Shown here: positions 2,368 through 13,762 of the stretch, piece after piece
Layout: each line of letters begins with the position of its first letter
Position numbering within the stretch: the stretch's first letter is position 1
Source of the DNA: Eledone cirrhosa
Taxonomy: Eukaryota
Direction of reading: 5' to 3'
Assembly (NCBI GenBank): GCA_964016885.1
Contig: OZ024741.1
Location: 83,576,001-83,640,000 of the forward strand
Length of the DNA: 64,000 nt
The notes under the pieces: model-generated
Told to the model about the DNA's origin: nothing
Databases searched by the model: none
What the model saw: only the letters and a program-made list of their open reading frames with translations
Position numbers and translations under genes: made by a program

Positions 2368-3656
2368 CTAGTAGAAGTACCTGGTGTTGCCCGGGTGTAA
2401 GTCAACTTTTGGTCTGTTGTTAAAACATTTGAAAGTTACTTCCCGCGCATCACAGGTGCAAAAACCTTCGAATCTCAAGGAAAAAAACAGAGGTTAGTAT
2501 ACGCAGGTGTGTAATTGAGCATAAATAATGGATCAATTGTAGGCTCACAGTGTATCATTGAAATTGGTCTTTGCAAGACTGACGGAAGTCAAATTCACTT
2601 GAAATTGAATTTTTAGTAGATTTTTAAAGCAGGGTGAAAAAGTCGATTTTTTCAAATATTTTTTTTTTTTACAATTTTGGCGCTCACATGTGCAGAAGAA
2701 GAAATAAAAGGGACTTTATCTGAATCACGGCATAATGGCGAGTCTTACGTTACAGTTTTCCAGAATATAGGACGATTGATTTTCGACAGTTTTCACGAAA
2801 ATCGGATGTTCCTGTAAAAAATTATCCCATCTACAACTTTGCCTTGTTTTTTGCGCAAAGTCGAACCCCCGCTTCAGTTTTATTGATTTTTTACATGAAC
2901 GCGTGACCTCTGAATTAGATTTGAGTAGCTAAAGACTTGTCCCGGTAAATTTGCTATATGTGAAAAAAAGTTGATCAAAATTGCGTCTAGGGTTATTGCC
3001 TTTGCAACAGCCTCAAAACATGTAATTAAAAAGATTTACCATGGATAATCGTGCACGTTGGTATTGTGTTTAGCCTGCGAAAATCGGTGATCAAATGAGG
3101 CAACAATAAGCCATACTTATGACGTTTAAGCGGGTGGCAAGGAATTGATGCGGCATAGATAGCCATGGGAGTCTTGAAGGAGCACGGCGTTGACGCAAAA
3201 GAAAGGGCCGAGGATGGGATGGTGGCTGACAGTGCATGGAGGCGGCATCCTGAGGCATGAAGATATAGTGGGGCGACGGCCAGCAGGCAAGGAAGAGGGC
3301 AGGGGTGGTCGGTGGCAAGGATGCCGCATGGTGATCCATGGCAGTCTTGAAGGAGCACTGTGGTCAGGAAAAAGAAAGGGCCAAGGAGGGGATGGCGGTT
3401 GACAGAACATTGATGCGGCATGGTGATGCATGACGATGCAGTGAGACGACGGCGTGCAGGGAAGGGAGATGGTCGGAATTGACGGTTGCAGGGATTCCGC
3501 ATGGTGAACCATGGCACTCGTGAAGGAACGGGAGGGCATGGTGGCTGACAGAGCATGGATCCGGCATGGTGAGGCATGACGATGCAGTGGGACGACATAT
3601 ATATACACACACACATATATATACATATATATATATATATACACACACACATATAT

Positions 3657-3701
<45 letters not shown>

Positions 3702-4110
3702 TACATATATACATGACTATATATGTGTGTATTTATCTATGTATATATTTTATCAGCAGGCAGGAGGTGTGGCTGCGCCAGTGAGGTGGAAGAGAGGGAA
3801 TGAGAGTAAGTTAGAGTTGTCCTGATTTTTGCGTCTGGTGATCCAATTATCGATTTTTCGAAAATTTAATGTAGCGCACGTTTATCCGCGGATCAAAATA
3901 CACACTTGCGTCAAGTTTCATCGATTTTTGAAAATATTGATTTTTTGCTTCTGGGGTCCAGATTATCGATTTTTCGAAATTTTCAGGTAGCCTATTCCAC
4001 TCTACGCGTTGAGTTTTATATATGTGTGTGGTTTCATGAAAATAGGATGAACGGTGTAGCATGCAATTTCGGTAAACCAAACGACGCCCAACTTCACTTT
4101 ATATATAAGA
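2368..4110 (-). mobile_element. Non-autonomous Helitron
   Basis: The minus strand starts A|TCTTATATATAAAG at 4110 and ends with a GC-rich hairpin-like CCCGGGCAACACCAGG followed by TACTTCTACTAG|T at 2368. This gives 5'-TC and CTAG-3' ends in an A|T target with no TSD. No RepHel ORF. Confidence 0.8.
3140..3596. repeat. GC-rich degenerate tandem repeat (~175 bp, about 3 units) inside the Helitron
   Basis: Recurring GCATGGTGA.CCATGGCA.TC.TGAAGGA and GATGG.GG.TGACAG blocks near 3150, 3325 and 3500. Confidence 0.75.
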
Positions 4111-4122
4111 TATATATATATA

Positions 4123-4250
<128 letters not shown>

Positions 4251-4308
4251 TATACATATATATATATGTATATATGTATATATATATATATATGTATATA
4301 TGTATATA

Positions 4309-4395
<87 letters not shown>

Positions 4396-4421
4396 GTATA
4401 TATATATGTATATATATATGT

Positions 4422-4485
<64 letters not shown>

Positions 4486-4488
<3 letters not shown>

Positions 4489-4871
4489 AATATAGACATA
4501 GAATATTCGAAAATATTCTGTATGTTTATAATAAACATTTTGAAGACCTAATCGCTATAGAATAGAATACGTCACGTATTACAATTAGATTCTCGATAAA
4601 AGCAAGGGAAGTAATCTACGCGTTTCATTCTCGTTAGAAATCATCAGGACTACATATCCAGTGCTTTTATCGAGAATGACACAGCTAGAGACTTATAGAA
4701 TACTTAGCTGTGTACAGGAACTGGTTTGAAAGAGCGGTTGCCGGTCCGGCAGAAATTAGAAATTGGAATAAATGCTCTGAAATAGCGATATATATGTGAA
4801 TATAGACATAGAATATTCGAAAATATTCTGTATGTTTATAATAAACATTTTGAAGACCTAATCGCTATAGA

Positions 4872-4874
<3 letters not shown>
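4486..4874 (-). mobile_element. Retrozyme-like non-coding element, 310 nt monomer with ~80 bp terminal direct repeat
   Basis: GTGAATATAGACATAG... starts at both 4486 and 4796. One HHR inside, no ORF, flanked by (TA)n. Confidence 0.78.
4611..4653 (-). ncRNA. Minimal type I hammerhead ribozyme
   Basis: GTAGTC-CTGATGA-tTTCT aacg AGAAt-GAAA-CGCG-TA-GATTAC: 6 bp stem I, palindromic stem III ACGCGT, GUA site. Confidence 0.88.
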
Positions 4875-4930
<56 letters not shown>

Positions 4931-5019
4931 TATAACTTTGAATAACTTTGAAATGTTTTGGCCAGTATTGGCCCAGGCCATGTCCAACTTAATAGCACCA
5001 CCTGGCGAAGTCTTTCAAT

Positions 5020-8000
5020 TCAGGATTTGGGCACCATGGCCCATTCGAGAAGAGAATTACTGTTTGCGGAGACATATCCGGGTGTGGGTGGTTTGTCCGG
5101 GATTACTTGGTGGAATTTGTCCAAAGACTTCTTGAATTTTGTGTGGTCAGTTTCTGTTTTGACGTGTCCTGGTGTGATGTTGAAGAGAGCAGGGCCGATT
5201 GAGGTGAAATAAGTGTGCCGTATTGTTGTTATGAGTTGCGATTTAGATTTTTGTATGGGACGGATAGCACGGGGCCCAAGCCTTGGGTGTATCTTGAAGG
5301 CGATGCCAACATCATTTTGGCAGTGATGATGGAACATTTTCCACATCATGCAGATAATATAACGCTCACGGCGACGTTGGAGTGAGTAAAGTTTCAGCTT
5401 TTCTAGTCGACCCCAGTAGTCAAGGTCTGACATGCCATCTATCTTTTTCGTGATTGCCCTTTGAGGAGCTTCAAGTTTCATGATACTTTGTTTCGTGTGG
5501 GGAGACCACAGTGGACAACAGTATTCAAGGTGTGGTCGGGCAAATGTAGAGAAGAGAAGGATAATGGTGTGGGAATCTCTCGACTGGAAGGTTCTGAGGA
5601 TCCAGGAACACATTCTGCGGGCCATGTCAACTTTGCTGCTTATATGCGTGGCCCAGCTTATGTTGCTGTCCACGGTTACTCCCAAGTCTCTGATGTTGTT
5701 AGATGCCACGAGAGTTTCCCCGGAGGGAAGGGAGTACGGGAGTTTCAGAGCATCCTCTTTTCCAAAGTGGATCAGTTCGAATTTGTCTTCGTTCAGTAAC
5801 ATGTTGTTCTTTTCCGCCCATTGGGTAACAGCCAGTAGGTCTGACTGAAGGCTTATCCGGTCATCCACGCCATTGATGACCTTTTGGAGCTTGGAATCAT
5901 CAGCGAAAATTTTAATGTTGCTGTGTTTGATGATGTCAGTGATGTCATTAATATAGATGATGAAGAGAAGTGGGCCCAACACAGTGCCTTGTGGGACCCC
6001 ACTGCTGACTTTGGCTGGGCAGGATTTGTCTCCTTCAACTACAACATGTTGGGTTCTGTTTGACAGGAAGTTCTTGATTCACTGCATCAGCTTTCCAGTG
6101 ACACCAATATTGGACAGCTTTCTCAGTAGTATGTTATGATCAACCCTGTCAAAGGCCTTGCTGAAATCAAGATAGATAACATCAGTGTTGGCACCCTCTC
6201 CCAAGGCTCTCAAAATGTCATCAAAGTGATGCAGTAGCTGCGTCAGGCAATCCCTTCCATTACGGAATCCATGCTGGTTGGAGCTCAGCATATTGTTACT
6301 CTCAAGGAAGTGGGTCATTCGCGATCTCACCACTCTCTCAAATACCTTAATGATATGAGAGGTGAGTGAGATTGGACGGTAATACACGGCAAGGGATTTG
6401 TTTCCTTTTTTGAAAACTGGGACAATAGACTGGGATAGAAGGTTTTCTGGCACATATCCAGCATCCAGTGAGTTCCGCCACAGATTGGCAAGAGGAGATG
6501 CAAGTTGGTGTTGACACGCCTTCAAGACACAATCAGGGAACCTATCGGGACCTACTGCTGAATTATGCTTGATTTCCTTTATTGCCGCTAAGACATCAGG
6601 GCGCCAAACGTTATGTCCGATAAGGTGTAATGGGGAGTAACATCGCGGATACAGCCCAGATCGGCCATATCAGGATTGCTGAAAACAGAGCAGTATTGTT
6701 TCTGCAGTATCTCACCCATGGTTTTAGCATTGTCCTGAAGAGTGCCATTTTCATCAATTAGAGGGCCAACAGTAGAGCCAGTGATTTTGTGTTTGTTTGC
6801 AAATGAAAAGAACACTTTGGGATTGAGTTTGATCTTTTCAATGGCACAGGCCTCTTCAGCTCTTCTCTGATTGTTGATGAGGGACATTATGTTGTTTTGG
6901 AGGTTATGTTTTTTAATCTCTAGTGATGAAATGGCAGTCAAGTTGATGTGTTGCTGCTGACAGTATTTCAGCTTGTTGATTTTTTTGTTTGTTCTCTTAA
7001 TTTTTCTGGTGAGCGTTTTTCTATTTCTAGGGATTCTGCTCTTAGATTTGTTTATAGTTTTTAATGGGATGTGTTTTGCACATATGTTTGTAACAGTGTC
7101 CACAAATGTCTGCCAGGACTTTTTGATGTTAGTGGGTGTATGAGTGTGCGTGAAGGACCAGTCGACATTTGCAAGATCATGACTGATCGCTTCCCAGTTT
7201 GCATGGTGGAAATCCATAGCGTCAAACGGATGGACAGGAGAGATGACATTGGGTTTGTATATTGGACGGTGGAATCTCAGATCACAGAGAACCATGTCAT
7301 GATCAGAGAGTAGAGTTGTCTCCACTGCAATATTGTGGATATTGTCAGTGTGATTGCTGAAAATTAAGTCTAGGAGGTTTTTGTGGCACCTCGTTGGTTC
7401 GAGCACCAGTTGGGATAGGAAGAAATCATCCATGAAGTCAAGAAGCGATTACACTGCTTCCCTGTCAGAGGTTGAGGCAGAAGAACCTGGTGGCAGGCTG
7501 TTTGTGGACCAGTCAACTCCGGAGAGGTCGAAGTCCCCCATCATTAAGATGTTGTCAGGGTGACACTCTTGGATGAAACACTTTATGCTGTTGAGGCATT
7601 CCTTGAAGCATGGTACAGGCGTTTGGGGTGGCCTATAGAGCCCAACTACTATTAGGTTGTTGGTTTGACTGAATACAGTGACTGCTTCGCAGTATCCATT
7701 AGTGAATATGTTCATAGCCTCTGTTGAGAAAGAATTATGGACATAAATGGCAGTCCCGCCCTTTCTTCTGCCAGCGCGATCAGCACGGATGGCTTTGAAA
7801 TTTTTCACTTTCACCTCGGCTTCCAAGTGGAGGTTACTGAGATGGGTTTCAGTGAGGACGAAGAAAGAGATGTGGTTTGGATGGACATCAATGCAGTCCT
7901 CCAGGAATTTGATCTTCCATTTTTGAGTATTGGTGGAAGGGCTGATGCCTTGGGCGTTAAGCAAAAATGTAGAGGCGAGAATGGATGGTTTTAATTGTTT

Positions 8001-8039
8001 TGGTGTGTTGTTAATTTGTTTGTTTGTTAATGGCAGCAA
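5020..8039 (-). pseudogene. LINE B ORF2: APE endonuclease + reverse transcriptase, disrupted
   Basis: APE motifs LLNAQG, LTETHL, YRPP, GDF, LDLIFSN, SDH; RT motifs YRPISLTS, YLDFSKAFD, LGPLLF, FADD. Nonsense codons at 7449-7451 and 6079-6081, and a frameshift near 6600. Confidence 0.93.
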
Positions 8040-8797
8040 TGGGAGTTTGTGCAGTGGGGTGATAGTGGAGGGTGGTGCTGGGTGATAGCTCGAATGTTTT
8101 TTTCCAGTTCTTTTGCCAGATTCATTATGGCTAAAAAAGAGGAAGAAGTATCCTGTTTAGAAGACTGTTGGTGACTGTGGTAGTGGTTATTTTTATGTAG
8201 GTTATGGTTTTTGTTTTTGCTTTTATTTTTAATTTTATTTTCATTTGTCCGACGGGTCCCCGGGAGATGGGTAAAGGGACAATCCCGGTCTAAACACAAT
8301 CTGTCTCGCAGGGAAAAGGGGCAGATTTGTGGATTCCTTGTTTGAGTTATTGGTGGTCGTGTTGGTGTTAAATTAGAGTATGTATTATGGTGGTGGCTGT
8401 TTGTGGGGATAGATCGTTTTGTCCTAGGTAAATGGGTGAATTTGCAGCCACTATCCGTACATATTCTAAAGCGTAGAGAGTAGCGGCAAATGATGGGGTT
8501 TCGAGTGGGTGGGTATGTGGGTGTGTGTGTTGTGAGAGGTGTAGATGATGGTCTGAGTAGGATTTGACGACCTTTGTGGACTGTGGGAGGGAGAGTTCTT
8601 GTACTGTTATTAGAAGGTAAATTCCTTGAGATAGCAGTAGCCAAAGATGTTGTAGTAGTAGTAGTAGTAGTAGGCAGAGAAGAAGATGCTGGCAGTGGTG
8701 ATGATTGGACTGCTGGGCCAGAGAAAGGATGTGGCGTTTCCTGCTGTGAGACAGAGGCTACTGGGAGGTCAATAGTTTCATTTAGTAGATCGGCCAT
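8027..8797 (-). CDS. LINE B ORF1 (partial), two CCCH-type zinc fingers
   Basis: CRYSLRFRICTDSGCKFTH and CPFSLRDRLCLDRDCPFTH (C-x8-C-x4-C-x3-H); lies immediately upstream of and overlaps ORF2. Confidence 0.82.
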   Translation of the reverse strand: MADLLNETIDLPVASVSQQETPHPFSGPAVQSSPLPASSSLPTTTTTTTTSLATAISRNLPSNNSTRTLPPTVHKGRQILLRPSSTPLTTHTPTYPPTRNPIICRYSLRFRICTDSGCKFTHLPRTKRSIPTNSHHHNTYSNLTPTRPPITQTRNPQICPFSLRDRLCLDRDCPFTHLPGTRRTNENKIKNKSKNKNHNLHKNNHYHSHQQSSKQDTSSSFLAIMNLAKELEKNIRAITQHHPPLSPHCTNSHCCH

Positions 8798-8863
8798 TGT
8801 TGATGAATCAAGGAGTGGTTCACACTGTTGTTGTTATTGTCGTTGTTGTTGTTGCTGTTGTTG

Positions 8864-8903
<40 letters not shown>

Positions 8904-9303
8904 GTATTTATATATATATAGGCTTGGCACTTGTTGGTATAAGACGTGAATTGTCGTCTCTCCAGATTCGAAATTTTAATATTTTAAATCGACAGTAATC
9001 GGATTTATGTATGGTTTTAATTCTTCGGAGGACAAGGAAAACATACAAAAAAGATAAGTTTTTGTGCTTTGACGCAATTATTTTGAAGTATATTTTACAT
9101 ATATTACCGTTTTGAACATGTTTATTTTCACTGTATGATTCCTTGATAGGAGACAACACACACACGTGCTTTCTATTTCTCTTGCCTACCATACAGAGCA
9201 TTTTGGTTTAACTTAAGTAGATCTTGTATTAATTTAAATTTAAAAATGTATTTTTATATTTATGAACTGCTGTTGCTCACGCTGTCTCTATCTCTCTCCT
9301 TCC

Positions 9304-9339
<36 letters not shown>

Positions 9340-9344
9340 TCTCT

Positions 9345-9421
9345 CTCTCTCGATCAACGAGCTCTCTTTCTCCCTCTCTCTCGATCAACGAGCTCTCTTT
9401 CTCCCTCTCTCTCGATCAACG

Positions 9422-9430
<9 letters not shown>
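9345..9430 (+). repeat. Three tandem ~30 bp units containing CTCGATCAACGAG hairpin inside a (CT)n tract
   Basis: CTCG-ATCAA-CGAG occurs three times, separated by CTCTCTTTCTCCCTCTCT. Confidence 0.85.
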
Positions 9431-9486
<56 letters not shown>

Positions 9487-9680
9487 TGAACTTCCCCCCC
9501 ACTCTTCCCGCTATCTCTCTCGCTCCCCTCATCTGTCTCCCCCTTTTCTTTTCTTTTCTTCTGTTTCTCTTTCTTCTTTTTCTCGCTGGAGTTATATCTC
9601 TATCTCCCTCCCTCACTCTGTCCCTCTCTAACCTCTACCCTACACTTCCCACTGTCTTTCTTTCTCCCCTCCACAGCGAA

Positions 9681-10625
9681 ATGGACTGCATGCAGGAAAA
9701 ATGTGAAATCAGGAGTCAACGAAACTGGTCTAAGATGGAACTAGCGGTTTTGATCAAGGGGTGGACCATGGCTGATGGGTCTCCACCAAGCAAAAAGATG
9801 GCGGAGAACCTGAAGAGCCATGGGTTTCTGAGGACCCTGGCACAGATAGAGAGAAAGAGAAAAGAAATTGAGAAGGCGTATGTCCTCATAGCGCCTCATA
9901 TGGCGATGCTAAGCCGTGTCCTCAGGGAGGAGAAAACCGAAGGGAGGGATGAGAAGGAGAGGGAAAAGGAAGAGGAAAAAGAAAAAGAAAAGGAGGAGAG
10001 CACAAGCACGGACCTGAAAGAAAATGATATACCCTCCGTCACAGGCAGGGAGGGCAGGCCGGGCAACCAACAAGCTAAGGGCAAAGGTGAAAAGCGAAAT
10101 CACCTTCCGAAGGAGAACCAAGCGCAGAGGGACCAGTGGACAACTGTTCAAAGAAAGAACAGAAAGCACCGAGACACTGGGAGCAATAAACCCCAAGTAA
10201 TGTGCAAGTTTTTCAAGAACGGGACATGCTGGCATGGAGAGACAGCGATGGGATGCAGATTCGCCCACCCTAGGTCTCAAACGAACTATGCCCATCATAC
10301 TCGCACAACATGCCCCAGCCAAAGCCGAAATAAGCCGCTCCAGAAGTATGCTGATGTCGCGCGTGCTGCACCAAGAAGGAGAAGGCACGCACATGCCGAC
10401 GAGATACAGATGGCAGCAGCAGATCAGAAAAATTTTTTAGTGATGGCAGAGAAGATTGTGGGACAGCTGACCTCGCTGCATCGTCTCCAGAACCAGGGTC
10501 ATCCACACGAGCACTCGAGACCACCGCAGTTAAGGGACCCAGAGTGGCCGCCGCTGACACCAGACCAGGTGTCATACCGACAGCCATTACTGGCACCCCA
10601 AAAGTCACACCAGTGCTGCTGCTGA
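9681..10625 (+). CDS. LINE A ORF1: Myb/SANT-like (trihelix) domain, charged linker, CCCH finger
   Basis: RNWSKMELAVLIKGW...KMAENLKSHGFLRTLAQIERKRKEIEKAY resembles the trihelix Myb/SANT pattern; CKFFKNGTCWHGETAMGCRFAH is CCCH-like. The ATG at 9681 is preferred over 9246 because the upstream part is translated (CT)n. Confidence 0.8.
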   Translation: MDCMQEKCEIRSQRNWSKMELAVLIKGWTMADGSPPSKKMAENLKSHGFLRTLAQIERKRKEIEKAYVLIAPHMAMLSRVLREEKTEGRDEKEREKEEEKEKEKEESTSTDLKENDIPSVTGREGRPGNQQAKGKGEKRNHLPKENQAQRDQWTTVQRKNRKHRDTGSNKPQVMCKFFKNGTCWHGETAMGCRFAHPRSQTNYAHHTRTTCPSQSRNKPLQKYADVARAAPRRRRHAHADEIQMAAADQKNFLVMAEKIVGQLTSLHRLQNQGHPHEHSRPPQLRDPEWPPLTPDQVSYRQPLLAPQKSHQCCC

Positions 10626-13585
10626 ATGTCAGGGGCCTGGTGAAACTCAGCAACATGAGTAAAATTTCCTACCTGGGAGACTTAGCCATAAGCAATCAAG
10701 CACTATGCATGGCACTAACCGAAACGCACCTGACAAGCAGTATAGCAGATGCAGAAATACATATACCGAAATATACTGTATTTCGTTCGGACAGGAAGGA
10801 GAGAACTCATGGTGGGTTTGCTCTGTATATCCGTGAAGATGTCACACCAATTGTACTGTTGACACATTCAAACTCAGTCTGTGACACACTGATAATACAT
10901 ATGAAGCAACTACAGACGGTAATATGTGTCACCTATCGGCCGCCCGATGCCCCCAGTCATGAGGGTAAATTTGAGGATAGCCTAAGTAGGATAGAAGAGG
11001 TCCTTGACAAACTGGACCAGGGTCTCAAAATCCTACTGCTGGGAGACTTCAACCTACCAAAGGTCAAATGGCCTGAGGGCCACCTCCTCCCTGGAATGAC
11101 GTCAATAGAACAGAGACAGACGGAATCCCTGCTGGCCCTCACACACAGGCTGTTCATGGAGCAAGCAATACTCCTCCCAACAAGAGGCGAAAATGTCCTG
11201 GACCTCTGTTTTACGAACAACGAAGTGCTCATCCACAATGTAAAGGTGACACCAGCAATTCTCTCGGATCATAACTTAGTAGAGCTAATGATATGTGGTC
11301 CAAGAGAACCAACAGAGACAAAACCACCAAGAAGCTCCGGGACGCTATCCAACCTTAACTTATACAAGGCTAACTGGAAAAAGATTAAGAGTGAAATCCG
11401 GAAGCAAACATGGAGTGAAAACATCGCCACACAAGACACTAACACACAATTTCAACACTTCATGACAACGATACACACCTTATGCAAAAAGTGTGTCCCG
11501 GAGAAAGAGGCAAACAGACACAAAAATCTTATTCCCAGAGATAGGAAAATCCTTATGAGACGTAGAACTAAACTCTCAAACCAGTTGAATAGTCAACAAA
11601 ACCAAAACAAGAAGTAATCCTATTTGAAACGTGCACTACTTGACACCGAGATTGCACTCAAACTTTCACATGAGAATGAGAGGGCAAAGAAAGAGAACAG
11701 GGCCAGAGAAAACATTAAAACAAACCCTAAGGCCTTCTTTAAATTTGCAAAAGAAACTGCCTCAGTACACTGCAAGATTGGACCACTCTTCCACACGGAC
11801 GGTTCATTAACCGAAAATCCCCAAGAGATATGTGAAATACTGAACGAACAGTACAAAAGTGTCTTCACATGTCCACTGAGGCACATGCAAATAACGAAGC
11901 CAGAGGAGTTATTTGATGCCACAACACTGCATCAAGAAATGGCAACCATCAACCACATAGACATAACGGAGGAGGATGTGGTGTACGCCATTGATGAAAT
12001 TAGAACAGACTCGGCTGCTGGACCTGATGGATTCCCAGCAGTTCTCCTAAAAATATGTAAGCGGGCCTTAGCAACTCCACTGAAGATGCTCTTCAGAAGC
12101 TCCTTGGCTAGCGGTGTACTACCCAGGGAGCTGAAAGAAGGCACAATATGCCCTATCCATAAAGGAGGTAGTAGAGCGGAGGCCAAGAACTATAGGCCAG
12201 TCTCCCTGACGTCGCATATCAGTAAGGTCATGGAGCGAGTCGTCAGAAAGAAACTAATCACTTTCCTCGAAGAAAATGACCGCCTGACTAGCACGCAACA
12301 TGGCTTCCGCCCAGGAAGAAGCTGCCTTACAGAGCTGCTACATCACTACGACTGGGTACTGAGACAACTACTAGACAGCTCACATGTAGACGTGATATAT
12401 CTTGACTTTGCGAAGGCCTTTGACAAGGTTGACCACGGAATGATATGTCACAAACTACACGGTCTCGGCATAACTGGAAAAGTAGGTGAGTGGCTGCATG
12501 GCTTCCTAAGGGACAGAAGCCAGGCAGTCGCAGCAAATGGGGCCCTCTCGAGGGAAACACCGATAACAAGTGGGGTGCCCCAGGGGACAGTCCTGGGACC
12601 ACTACTGTTTTTGGTGGCTCTCTCGGACATGCCCTCTGTGGTGCATGCAACAACATCCCTCACTAGCTATGCTGATGACACTAAGGTAGCACAGGCAATC
12701 AAAAACCCGGCTGACGCTGCCCTCTTACAGCAGGATCTGGATGCCATATACAGATGGGCGGAAGACAACAACATGCAGTTTAATGCTGGCAAATTCCAAG
12801 CCCTACAATACAAACCTGCAAACACAAACACAAATATAGCGGAACACAGCTACACAGGACCAGGAGGGACCGATATCCCCGTGTCAAAATCGATACGAGA
12901 CCTGGGCATAGACATGAGCGATGATGCATCTTTTTCTTCACACATCATGAAGGTGGCGACAACATGCAGACGATTTGCTGGCTGGATCTTGAGGACTTTC
13001 CTTACAAGAGATCGAGACACTATGTTGACACTGTGGAGAACTTTTGTCCTAAGCCGCCTGGACTACTGCTCCCAGCTGTGGTCACCCCATAGTGTCAAAC
13101 TAACCACGGAGCTTGAGGCAATCCAGCGAAGCTACACCAAGAGGATTGCCAAGATGAGGGAGACAAACTACTGGGAGAGGCTAAAGGAACTGAACCTCTA
13201 CTCCTTGGAGCGAAGACGGGAGAGATACGCAGTGATCTACATGTGGAAAATCCTGGAGAGACTAGCACCAAACTTTGGCATTGGGAGCTGGACCAACCGT
13301 CGAACAGGACGTCACTGTGTGGTGCCAAAGGTCCCGTCTTCCACGTCTAGAATAAGGAGCAGGTATTGCAATAGCCTGGGATTCAAGGGCCCTCAACTCT
13401 TCAACAGGCTGCCGAGACATCTGCGAGACTTGCATGACGTGGAGGTGGATGTCTTTAAGAAACATCTCGACACCTTATTATCCAGGATCCCGGATGAGCC
13501 CACAGCAAGACACGAGGGAAACCTAAGGGCAGCAGCAACAAACTCCCTCCTACACCAGTGGCCAACCTATACAGGCTGGAGATAA
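10544..13585 (+). pseudogene. LINE A ORF2: APE endonuclease + reverse transcriptase with a single premature stop
   Basis: ORFs 10544..11617 and 11624..13585 are in the same frame, split by one TAA at 11615-11617. Motifs LLNVRGL, LTETHL, YRPP, GDFN, SDHN, YLDFAKAFD, GVPQGTVLGP, YADD. Confidence 0.95.
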
Positions 13586-13658
13586 AATGTGTAGCAACAA
13601 GGGCGGTGCCCCAGCATGGCCTCAGCCGGATGGCTGAAACAGGTAAAAGAGTAAAAGA

Positions 13659-13762
<104 letters not shown>

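Follow-up and report, generated by a model that had tools for sequence, protein, structure and literature searches.

The slippery heptamer T TTT TTA lies where the two open reading frames (ORFs) of LINE B, a retrotransposon of Eledone cirrhosa, overlap, and we estimate with a probability of about 80% that programmed −1 frameshifting there yields an ORF1–ORF2 fusion, probably at low efficiency. An X XXY YYZ heptamer stands in the upstream frame, the downstream ORF overlaps in the −1 frame and is open from the site, the LINE B downstream ORF has no usable AUG, and the site is conserved beyond the constraint on the protein. Site, register, overlap and conservation are directly observed, as is the absence of an AUG in the families of this genome. 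The site is real and strongly conserved, and it probably serves −1 frameshifting, as judged from sequence comparison; the copying enzyme would likely be made in the manner of retroviruses, by a one-base slip-back of the ribosome that fuses both proteins.

Retroviruses and LTR elements are well-established cases of −1 frameshifting, and element descriptions of the 1990s suggested frameshifts without tests. To our knowledge, ORF2 production from bicistronic LINE RNAs has been tested in very few elements, and the answer was reinitiation. If a −1 signal is conserved across many animal LINE families, ORF2p would be a fusion protein, which would alter its predicted N terminus, the ORF1p:ORF2p ratio and RNP assembly, and the ORF2 starts in databases would be wrong. 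The LINE families would also provide a naturally occurring set of slippery sites that seem to lack RNA structure.

Layout of LINE B

The window analysed here is a stretch of 64,000 nucleotides from a TA-rich host genome of 3.0 Gb. LINE B spans about 8920 to 4933 on the minus strand, to which all LINE B coordinates below refer, and the window copy is 5′-truncated. Positions 8138–8132 spell TTTTTTA, which is read T TTT TTA in the ORF1 frame and is followed by G. As the first-pass annotation had stated, the codons at this site (8132..8138) are TCT TTT TTA GCC, encoding SFLA; the heptamer specifies F-L in ORF1 and F-F in the −1 frame. The 3′ part of ORF1 occupies 8027..8797 and continues for 34 codons past the heptamer to a TAA at 8029–8027. 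The last upstream stop of the −1 frame (TAA) is located at 8157..8159, and the frame opens 6 codons ahead of the heptamer and is stop-free from 8156 to 7449, reading FFSHNESGKRTGKKHSSYHPAPP... on into the APE motifs, which bears out the earlier claim of an open −1 path into the endonuclease frame. The annotation had placed the entry into APE at 8039; the frame arithmetic is correct, but 8039 lies in the linker, and the first APE strand (FLLN) begins at about 7967. The linker (7968..8131) comprises about 55 codons, contains no AUG and is dual-coding in its first 34 codons. After the site, no in-frame Met occurs before codon 141 (7715), which is inside the endonuclease domain and beyond the LLNAQG and TETH motifs, in agreement with the claim that no AUG precedes the first endonuclease motif.

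Upstream of the slip site, regular-expression matching located two CCCH zinc fingers, at 8432..8488 (C-x8-C-x4-C-x3-H) and 8267..8323. The ORF1 segment that follows F-L (AIMNLAKELEKNIRAITQ, 8078..8131) occurs clade-wide, is helix-like by pattern as judged by eye, and would be absent from the shifted product. It contains a second in-register heptamer, A AAA AAC (8096..8102), which is a possible minor slip site. In longer LINE B copies, ORF1 starts with MANQQ and carries a Myb/SANT-like domain and poly-Q; the domain match of a full-length ORF1 (L102:1638-2405), which likewise carries poly-Q, falls slightly short of the Pfam cut-off (E value 2.5e-5). The CCCH-bearing ORF1 of the window copy had no Pfam match, and its Atlas neighbours are annotated zf-CCCH with a score of about 0.82, a weak lead. 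The ORF1 C termini are Cys-rich, with HCCH in B (8030-8041, minus strand) and QCCC in A (10611-10622, plus strand), and ORF1 ends in SSC or SCY in several relatives. In run X4, the summed contig depth over window positions 8051-8337 was about 2,500–13,000 versus about 250–400 on either side; this peak covers the ORF1 C-terminal part, and the stretch is partly A-rich.

The APE–RT ORF2 (5020..7967) is broken in the window by stops at 7449-7451 and 6079-6081 and by a 1-nt loss near 6600, and this copy is dead. An intact ORF2 is found in L092 as one open 1045-codon frame that begins TGNFFLFFSH and contains APE and RT by Pfam. A 10-nt unit present in two copies forms the 3′ tail (4933..4952). An ORF2 with APE and RT and no RNase H by Pfam, together with a short tandem 3′ tail in place of poly-A, are traits of the CR1 group, to which we assume these elements belong on the basis of their CR1-like motifs. 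LINE B and a second element, LINE A, are both young members of the same clade and lie head to head about 400 bases apart (window 4933-13660). Each ends in a (TA)n array and many further copies also sit within TA repeats, an insertion pattern that may reflect a target preference.

Conservation within the LINE B family

The family is young, the best 40 matches among 1152 candidates being 99% identical. The heptamer is kept in 29 of the 30 best copies, and in all 30 the −1 frame is open from six codons before it. As this 30-copy sample is biased to similar copies, we added a genome-wide count of copies matching a 21-nt anchor just downstream of the site (n = 650). The exact 8-mer TTTTTTAG is present in 619 of them, and seven have T7 or T8 at the site. 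Heptamer and open frame thus came through the family-wide conservation check proposed in the annotation; given the age of the family, this conservation shows only that the site belongs to an active element. Among six atypical copies that we inspected, five carry point or 1-nt changes, and T5 occurs in three of the six; the other (L226) begins at about the slip site and abuts a microsatellite flank rather than a LINE exon. One further copy (L077) is an in-frame ORF1–ORF2 fusion created by an indel in the overlap, and open frames of unusual length (1325, 1328 and 1514 amino acids) occur in a few copies among the G000 matches.

Related families in the same genome

LINE A extends on the plus strand to about 13660 and has the same heptamer at 10433..10439, with ORF1 running to 10625 and the −1 frame open from 10355. 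The annotation had called this an independent match; the heptamer is identical, but A and B fall in one clade, with APE domains 35% identical, and independence is at best partial. In LINE A, T TTT TTA is accompanied by a tandem A AAT TTT; the heptamer is kept in 28 of the 30 best copies, and the diverged A variants L241 and L251 retain it with changed adjacent codons. T TTT TTA is retained in five of the eight copies of the older sister family B2, where a 3-nt indel directly follows the site, and in family D the heptamer lies two codons past the −1 stop at 17 of 22 loci. In the more distant family C, ORF1 ends with G GGA AAC TAA (L098:4903-4954, minus strand) and no AUG precedes APE; many of its copies have an intact ORF2 of 957 codons. 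The genome therefore contains four related families with T TTT TTA (A, B and two more) and a fifth with G GGA AAC. In a separate LINE group, ORF2 starts with its own Met; the contrast with these ATG-started families (L103-L132 except family C) was read by eye and stands outside the counts.

Slippery heptamers across LINE families

A four-sequence APE alignment was used as the query in a scan of metagenome contigs, from which the best 80 of at least 449 relatives were taken, and the same query provided 11 further loci from genome contigs. Short weak matches (L220-L223) and loci with a cut or broken APE start (L155, L160, L186 and L195) were left out before the family count. The final set, 87 fetched loci plus 6 own-genome loci minus 4 unusable ones, grouped into 74 families at 70% APE identity. 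B2 and D entered as broken copies, B2 being scored as a miss and D as having no overlap. ORF1 is long and overlaps ORF2 in the −1 frame in 32 families and in the +1 frame in 8; a long overlapping frame is missing from another 30, and contig ends truncate the remaining 4.

In the register that permits the shift, 26 of the 32 −1-overlap families show a canonical heptamer, a count that includes L167 and L178, whose heptamers are doubtful. The two wrong registers contain heptamers in 2/32 and 8/32, and heptamers occur in none of the eight +1-overlap families and in 10 of the 30 without a long overlapping ORF1. Background rates predict 4–6 heptamer families out of 32, and synonymous recoding that kept the ORF1 protein (2,000 runs) gave a mean of 9.3 and a maximum of 20, never reaching 26. 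The site is thus more than chance, as 619 of 650 copies are exact and 26 of 32 families are in register against 0 of 2,000 recodings, although the family counts are not independent trials because the families share ancestry. The first in-register site lies 0–26 codons past the opening of the −1 frame, in overlaps of 7–148 codons. The six misses comprise three near-canonical sites (G GAU UUU, G GAA AAC and U UUU UUG), the broken B2 copy and two families with nothing; L175 and L198 have a −1 overlap without any slippery-like site. Among sister lineages, G GAU UUU, A AAA AAC and U UUA AAC have been swapped in. At the level of sequence, the strong points for frameshifting are these swaps between slippery types and the retention of a site across APE domains that are 30–40% identical.

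An AUG in the −1 frame of the linker is absent from 15 of the 26 heptamer families and present at scattered places in 11. Called ORF2 starts among the relatives are likewise scattered, many of them at or inside the APE start. A search with the full ORF2 found 165 relatives, including one protein relative from the ctenophore Mnemiopsis, and the best 51 of the 165 contained no in-frame fused CCCH finger. The searches found no homologues of the short APE piece within longer proteins and no relatives among viral contigs. Seven loci (L213-L219) are animal-type LINEs inside bacterial MAGs and are probably host contamination.

Codon choice in the A/B clade

A FastTree phylogeny of the LINE families, built without named references from CR1, L2 or Daphne, places A, B, B2 and D in one 23-row clade with a support of 100; its deep nodes are weak. 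Where visible, ORF1 of this clade usually carries between one and three CCCH fingers, followed by a linker, the xFL motif, a segment of helix-like pattern and a tail rich in Q and P, and in A and B weak Myb/SANT-like matches lie further upstream. As xFL is itself a protein motif, we tested its codon choice. The motif is coded T TTT TTA in 15 of 19 visible cases and F-L pairs in the ORF2 bodies in 0 of 44; by codon use, the chance of T TTT TTA given F-L is 0.014. Of the remaining four, two (both from the sister group to B) have G GAT TTT, and the others have T TTT TTG or A TTT TTA. One clade member and several lineages outside the clade use A AAA AAC, and 2 of 25 K-N pairs in the ORF2 bodies of those lineages are coded this way. 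The ORF1 amino acids at the site are partly constrained, because F-L with the helix and K-N are also protein motifs.

Predicted mechanism and stimulatory elements

At U UUU UUA, ORF1 overlaps the AUG-less ORF2, and a small share of the ribosomes would slip back one base there, with the Phe and Leu tRNAs presumably re-pairing on UUU UUU in the manner of HIV-1. The fusion would retain the N-terminal part of ORF1 and its CCCH fingers and would exchange the helix and Q/P-rich tail for a linker of 55–155 residues, followed by APE–RT, while unshifted ribosomes would produce ORF1p. As folding revealed no stable downstream structure, the efficiency is probably low, and it may be governed by slow decoding of UUA, which these elements use less than any other Leu codon (145/1463).

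Minimum-energy folding revealed no classic 3′ stem-loop 5–9 nt after the site. The LINE B 3′ fold has z = +0.45 and −0.37 against shuffles, and that of LINE A is likewise no more stable; across 29 sites the mean z is −0.26, with 3 of 29 below −2, similar to control windows. In family C, the segment 30–90 nt past G GGA AAC has a predicted fold with z −5.8, the best candidate stimulator that we observed. A long-distance frameshift element at the 3′ end is not supported either: for pairing with the LINE tail, the region immediately behind the site comes 22nd among 216 windows in B and 11th among 218 in A, and it comes first in 3 of 18 elements (L140, L167 and L169, the end of L169 being cut). G follows the heptamer at 12 of 13 sites, giving TTTTTTAG, and also creates a −2 frame stop at 12 of 13.

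A broader model, to which we give somewhat less than even odds, is that ORF2 is expressed in Gag-Pol style across much of the CR1-like LINE radiation, through a bare heptamer with no local RNA structure. In the A/B clade, the RT would then carry the CCCH RNA-binding fingers of ORF1 on a disordered linker, which would give cis preference a physical explanation, and the supply of rare tRNA-Leu(UAA) would determine how much RT is made.

Alternative explanations

As in SART1 and human L1, ORF2 of LINE B could be made by termination-reinitiation or by non-AUG initiation close to the end of ORF1, in which case the heptamer would be incidental or vestigial. Near-cognate TTG, CTG and ATT do occur at ORF2-frame codons 33, 34 and 41, around the ORF1 stop, the linker contains an in-frame AUG in 11 of the 26 heptamer families, and reinitiation is stated for SART1 (PMC10275272). 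In many relatives ORF1 also ends a few codons from the APE start, but that stop is often forced by the Leu-Asn codons, and in several families ORF1 stops 0–2 codons past the heptamer, far from APE. As reinitiation further leaves unexplained both the codon choice (15/19 versus 0/44) and a −1 frame that is open far upstream, closing just before an in-register heptamer, we consider it improbable. Selection on the ORF1 protein motif alone could account for the clade-wide conservation of xFL and the helix, and F-L is coded TTT CTG in L136 and L153. At these two loci, however, G GAU UUU stands in register, and this heptamer is known as a slip site of umbraviruses (PMC5009743). The low chance of T TTT TTA given F-L and its absence from the F-L pairs elsewhere also speak against this explanation, which would moreover leave ORF2 without a start; we regard it as extremely unlikely.

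Two further explanations place the event at the RNA level, and both fit the genomic copies poorly. If TTTTTTAG were a 3′ splice acceptor joining an upstream exon to ORF2, the G after 12 of 13 heptamers would be accounted for, the upstream run richest in pyrimidines is that of LINE B (0.71), and L226, one of the six atypical copies inspected, starts close to the site. The upstream pyrimidine fraction nevertheless averages 0.43, the other heptamers are not acceptors, and the next AUG belongs to the ORF1 frame. Splicing would be expected to leave its mark in retrocopies, yet 0 of 650 copies fit the splice-retrocopy pattern, which would catch a substantial share of junctions; the other five atypical copies have small changes only, and the L226 flank is microsatellite. 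Contigs from four runs contain no joint at 8131. The splice-acceptor reading, which the annotation had named as a refutation, is therefore very unlikely. Slippage of RNA polymerase on the T6 run could instead add a base that puts ORF2 in frame, and the site is homopolymeric, with T7 or T8 in seven copies. LINE RNAs that encode the enzyme are preferentially copied in cis, and an extra T should thus be common among the copies, but it is found in only 7 of 650, T5 copies also exist, and neither G GGA AAC nor U UUA AAC is a homopolymer; we judge this the least likely explanation. A −1 ribosomal frameshift, as the annotation had proposed, is supported by sequence conservation within the family and across deeply diverged families and probably explains the site.

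Comparison with known systems

In a literature search largely confined to freely accessible papers, we found no description of −1 frameshifting in CR1-like LINEs. The elements resemble the CR1 group as surveyed in PMC4120745 and PMC13343379 in having APE and RT, no RNase H match and a short tandem tail, whereas an ORF1 with CCCH and Myb/SANT-like domains is not among the ORF1 types in the consulted parts of these surveys, and 'frameshift', 'overlap' and 'CCCH' are absent from the main text there. LTR retrotransposon gag-pol (survey cited in PMC5009743) is similar in that pol lies in the −1 frame with well-placed heptamers in many animal elements. The sections of PMC5009743 available to us name no heptamer-based shift for two-ORF LINEs; their 'non-LTR' passage concerns HeT-A gag, within which a frameshift is described, and TART. 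For Paramecium elements, a +1 shift or reinitiation has been suggested (PMC5405496).

The Dictyostelium elements TRE5-A and TRE3-A are, like LINE B, APE-type LINEs, and are said to require a −1 frameshift for ORF2 (PMC5911963); they belong to a different lineage and host, their ORF2 has a zinc finger, and the excerpted text gives no site or test. SART1 likewise has a bicistronic LINE RNA that needs ORF2 expression, but there a UAAUG stop-start mediates reinitiation and yields a separate ORF2p (PMC10275272, in part), whereas LINE B has no in-frame AUG and a long −1 overlap. The HIV-1 gag-pol site (PMC6547452, in part) has the identical U UUU UUA heptamer with Phe-Leu in frame 0, the same fusion of an RNA-binding structural ORF to a polymerase ORF, and the same rare UUA codon. 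LINE B differs from HIV-1 in being a non-LTR element, known here from sequence alone, with no stable stem-loop detected 3′ of the site, and in that its shift would put a long linker in place of the helix and Q/P tail of ORF1.
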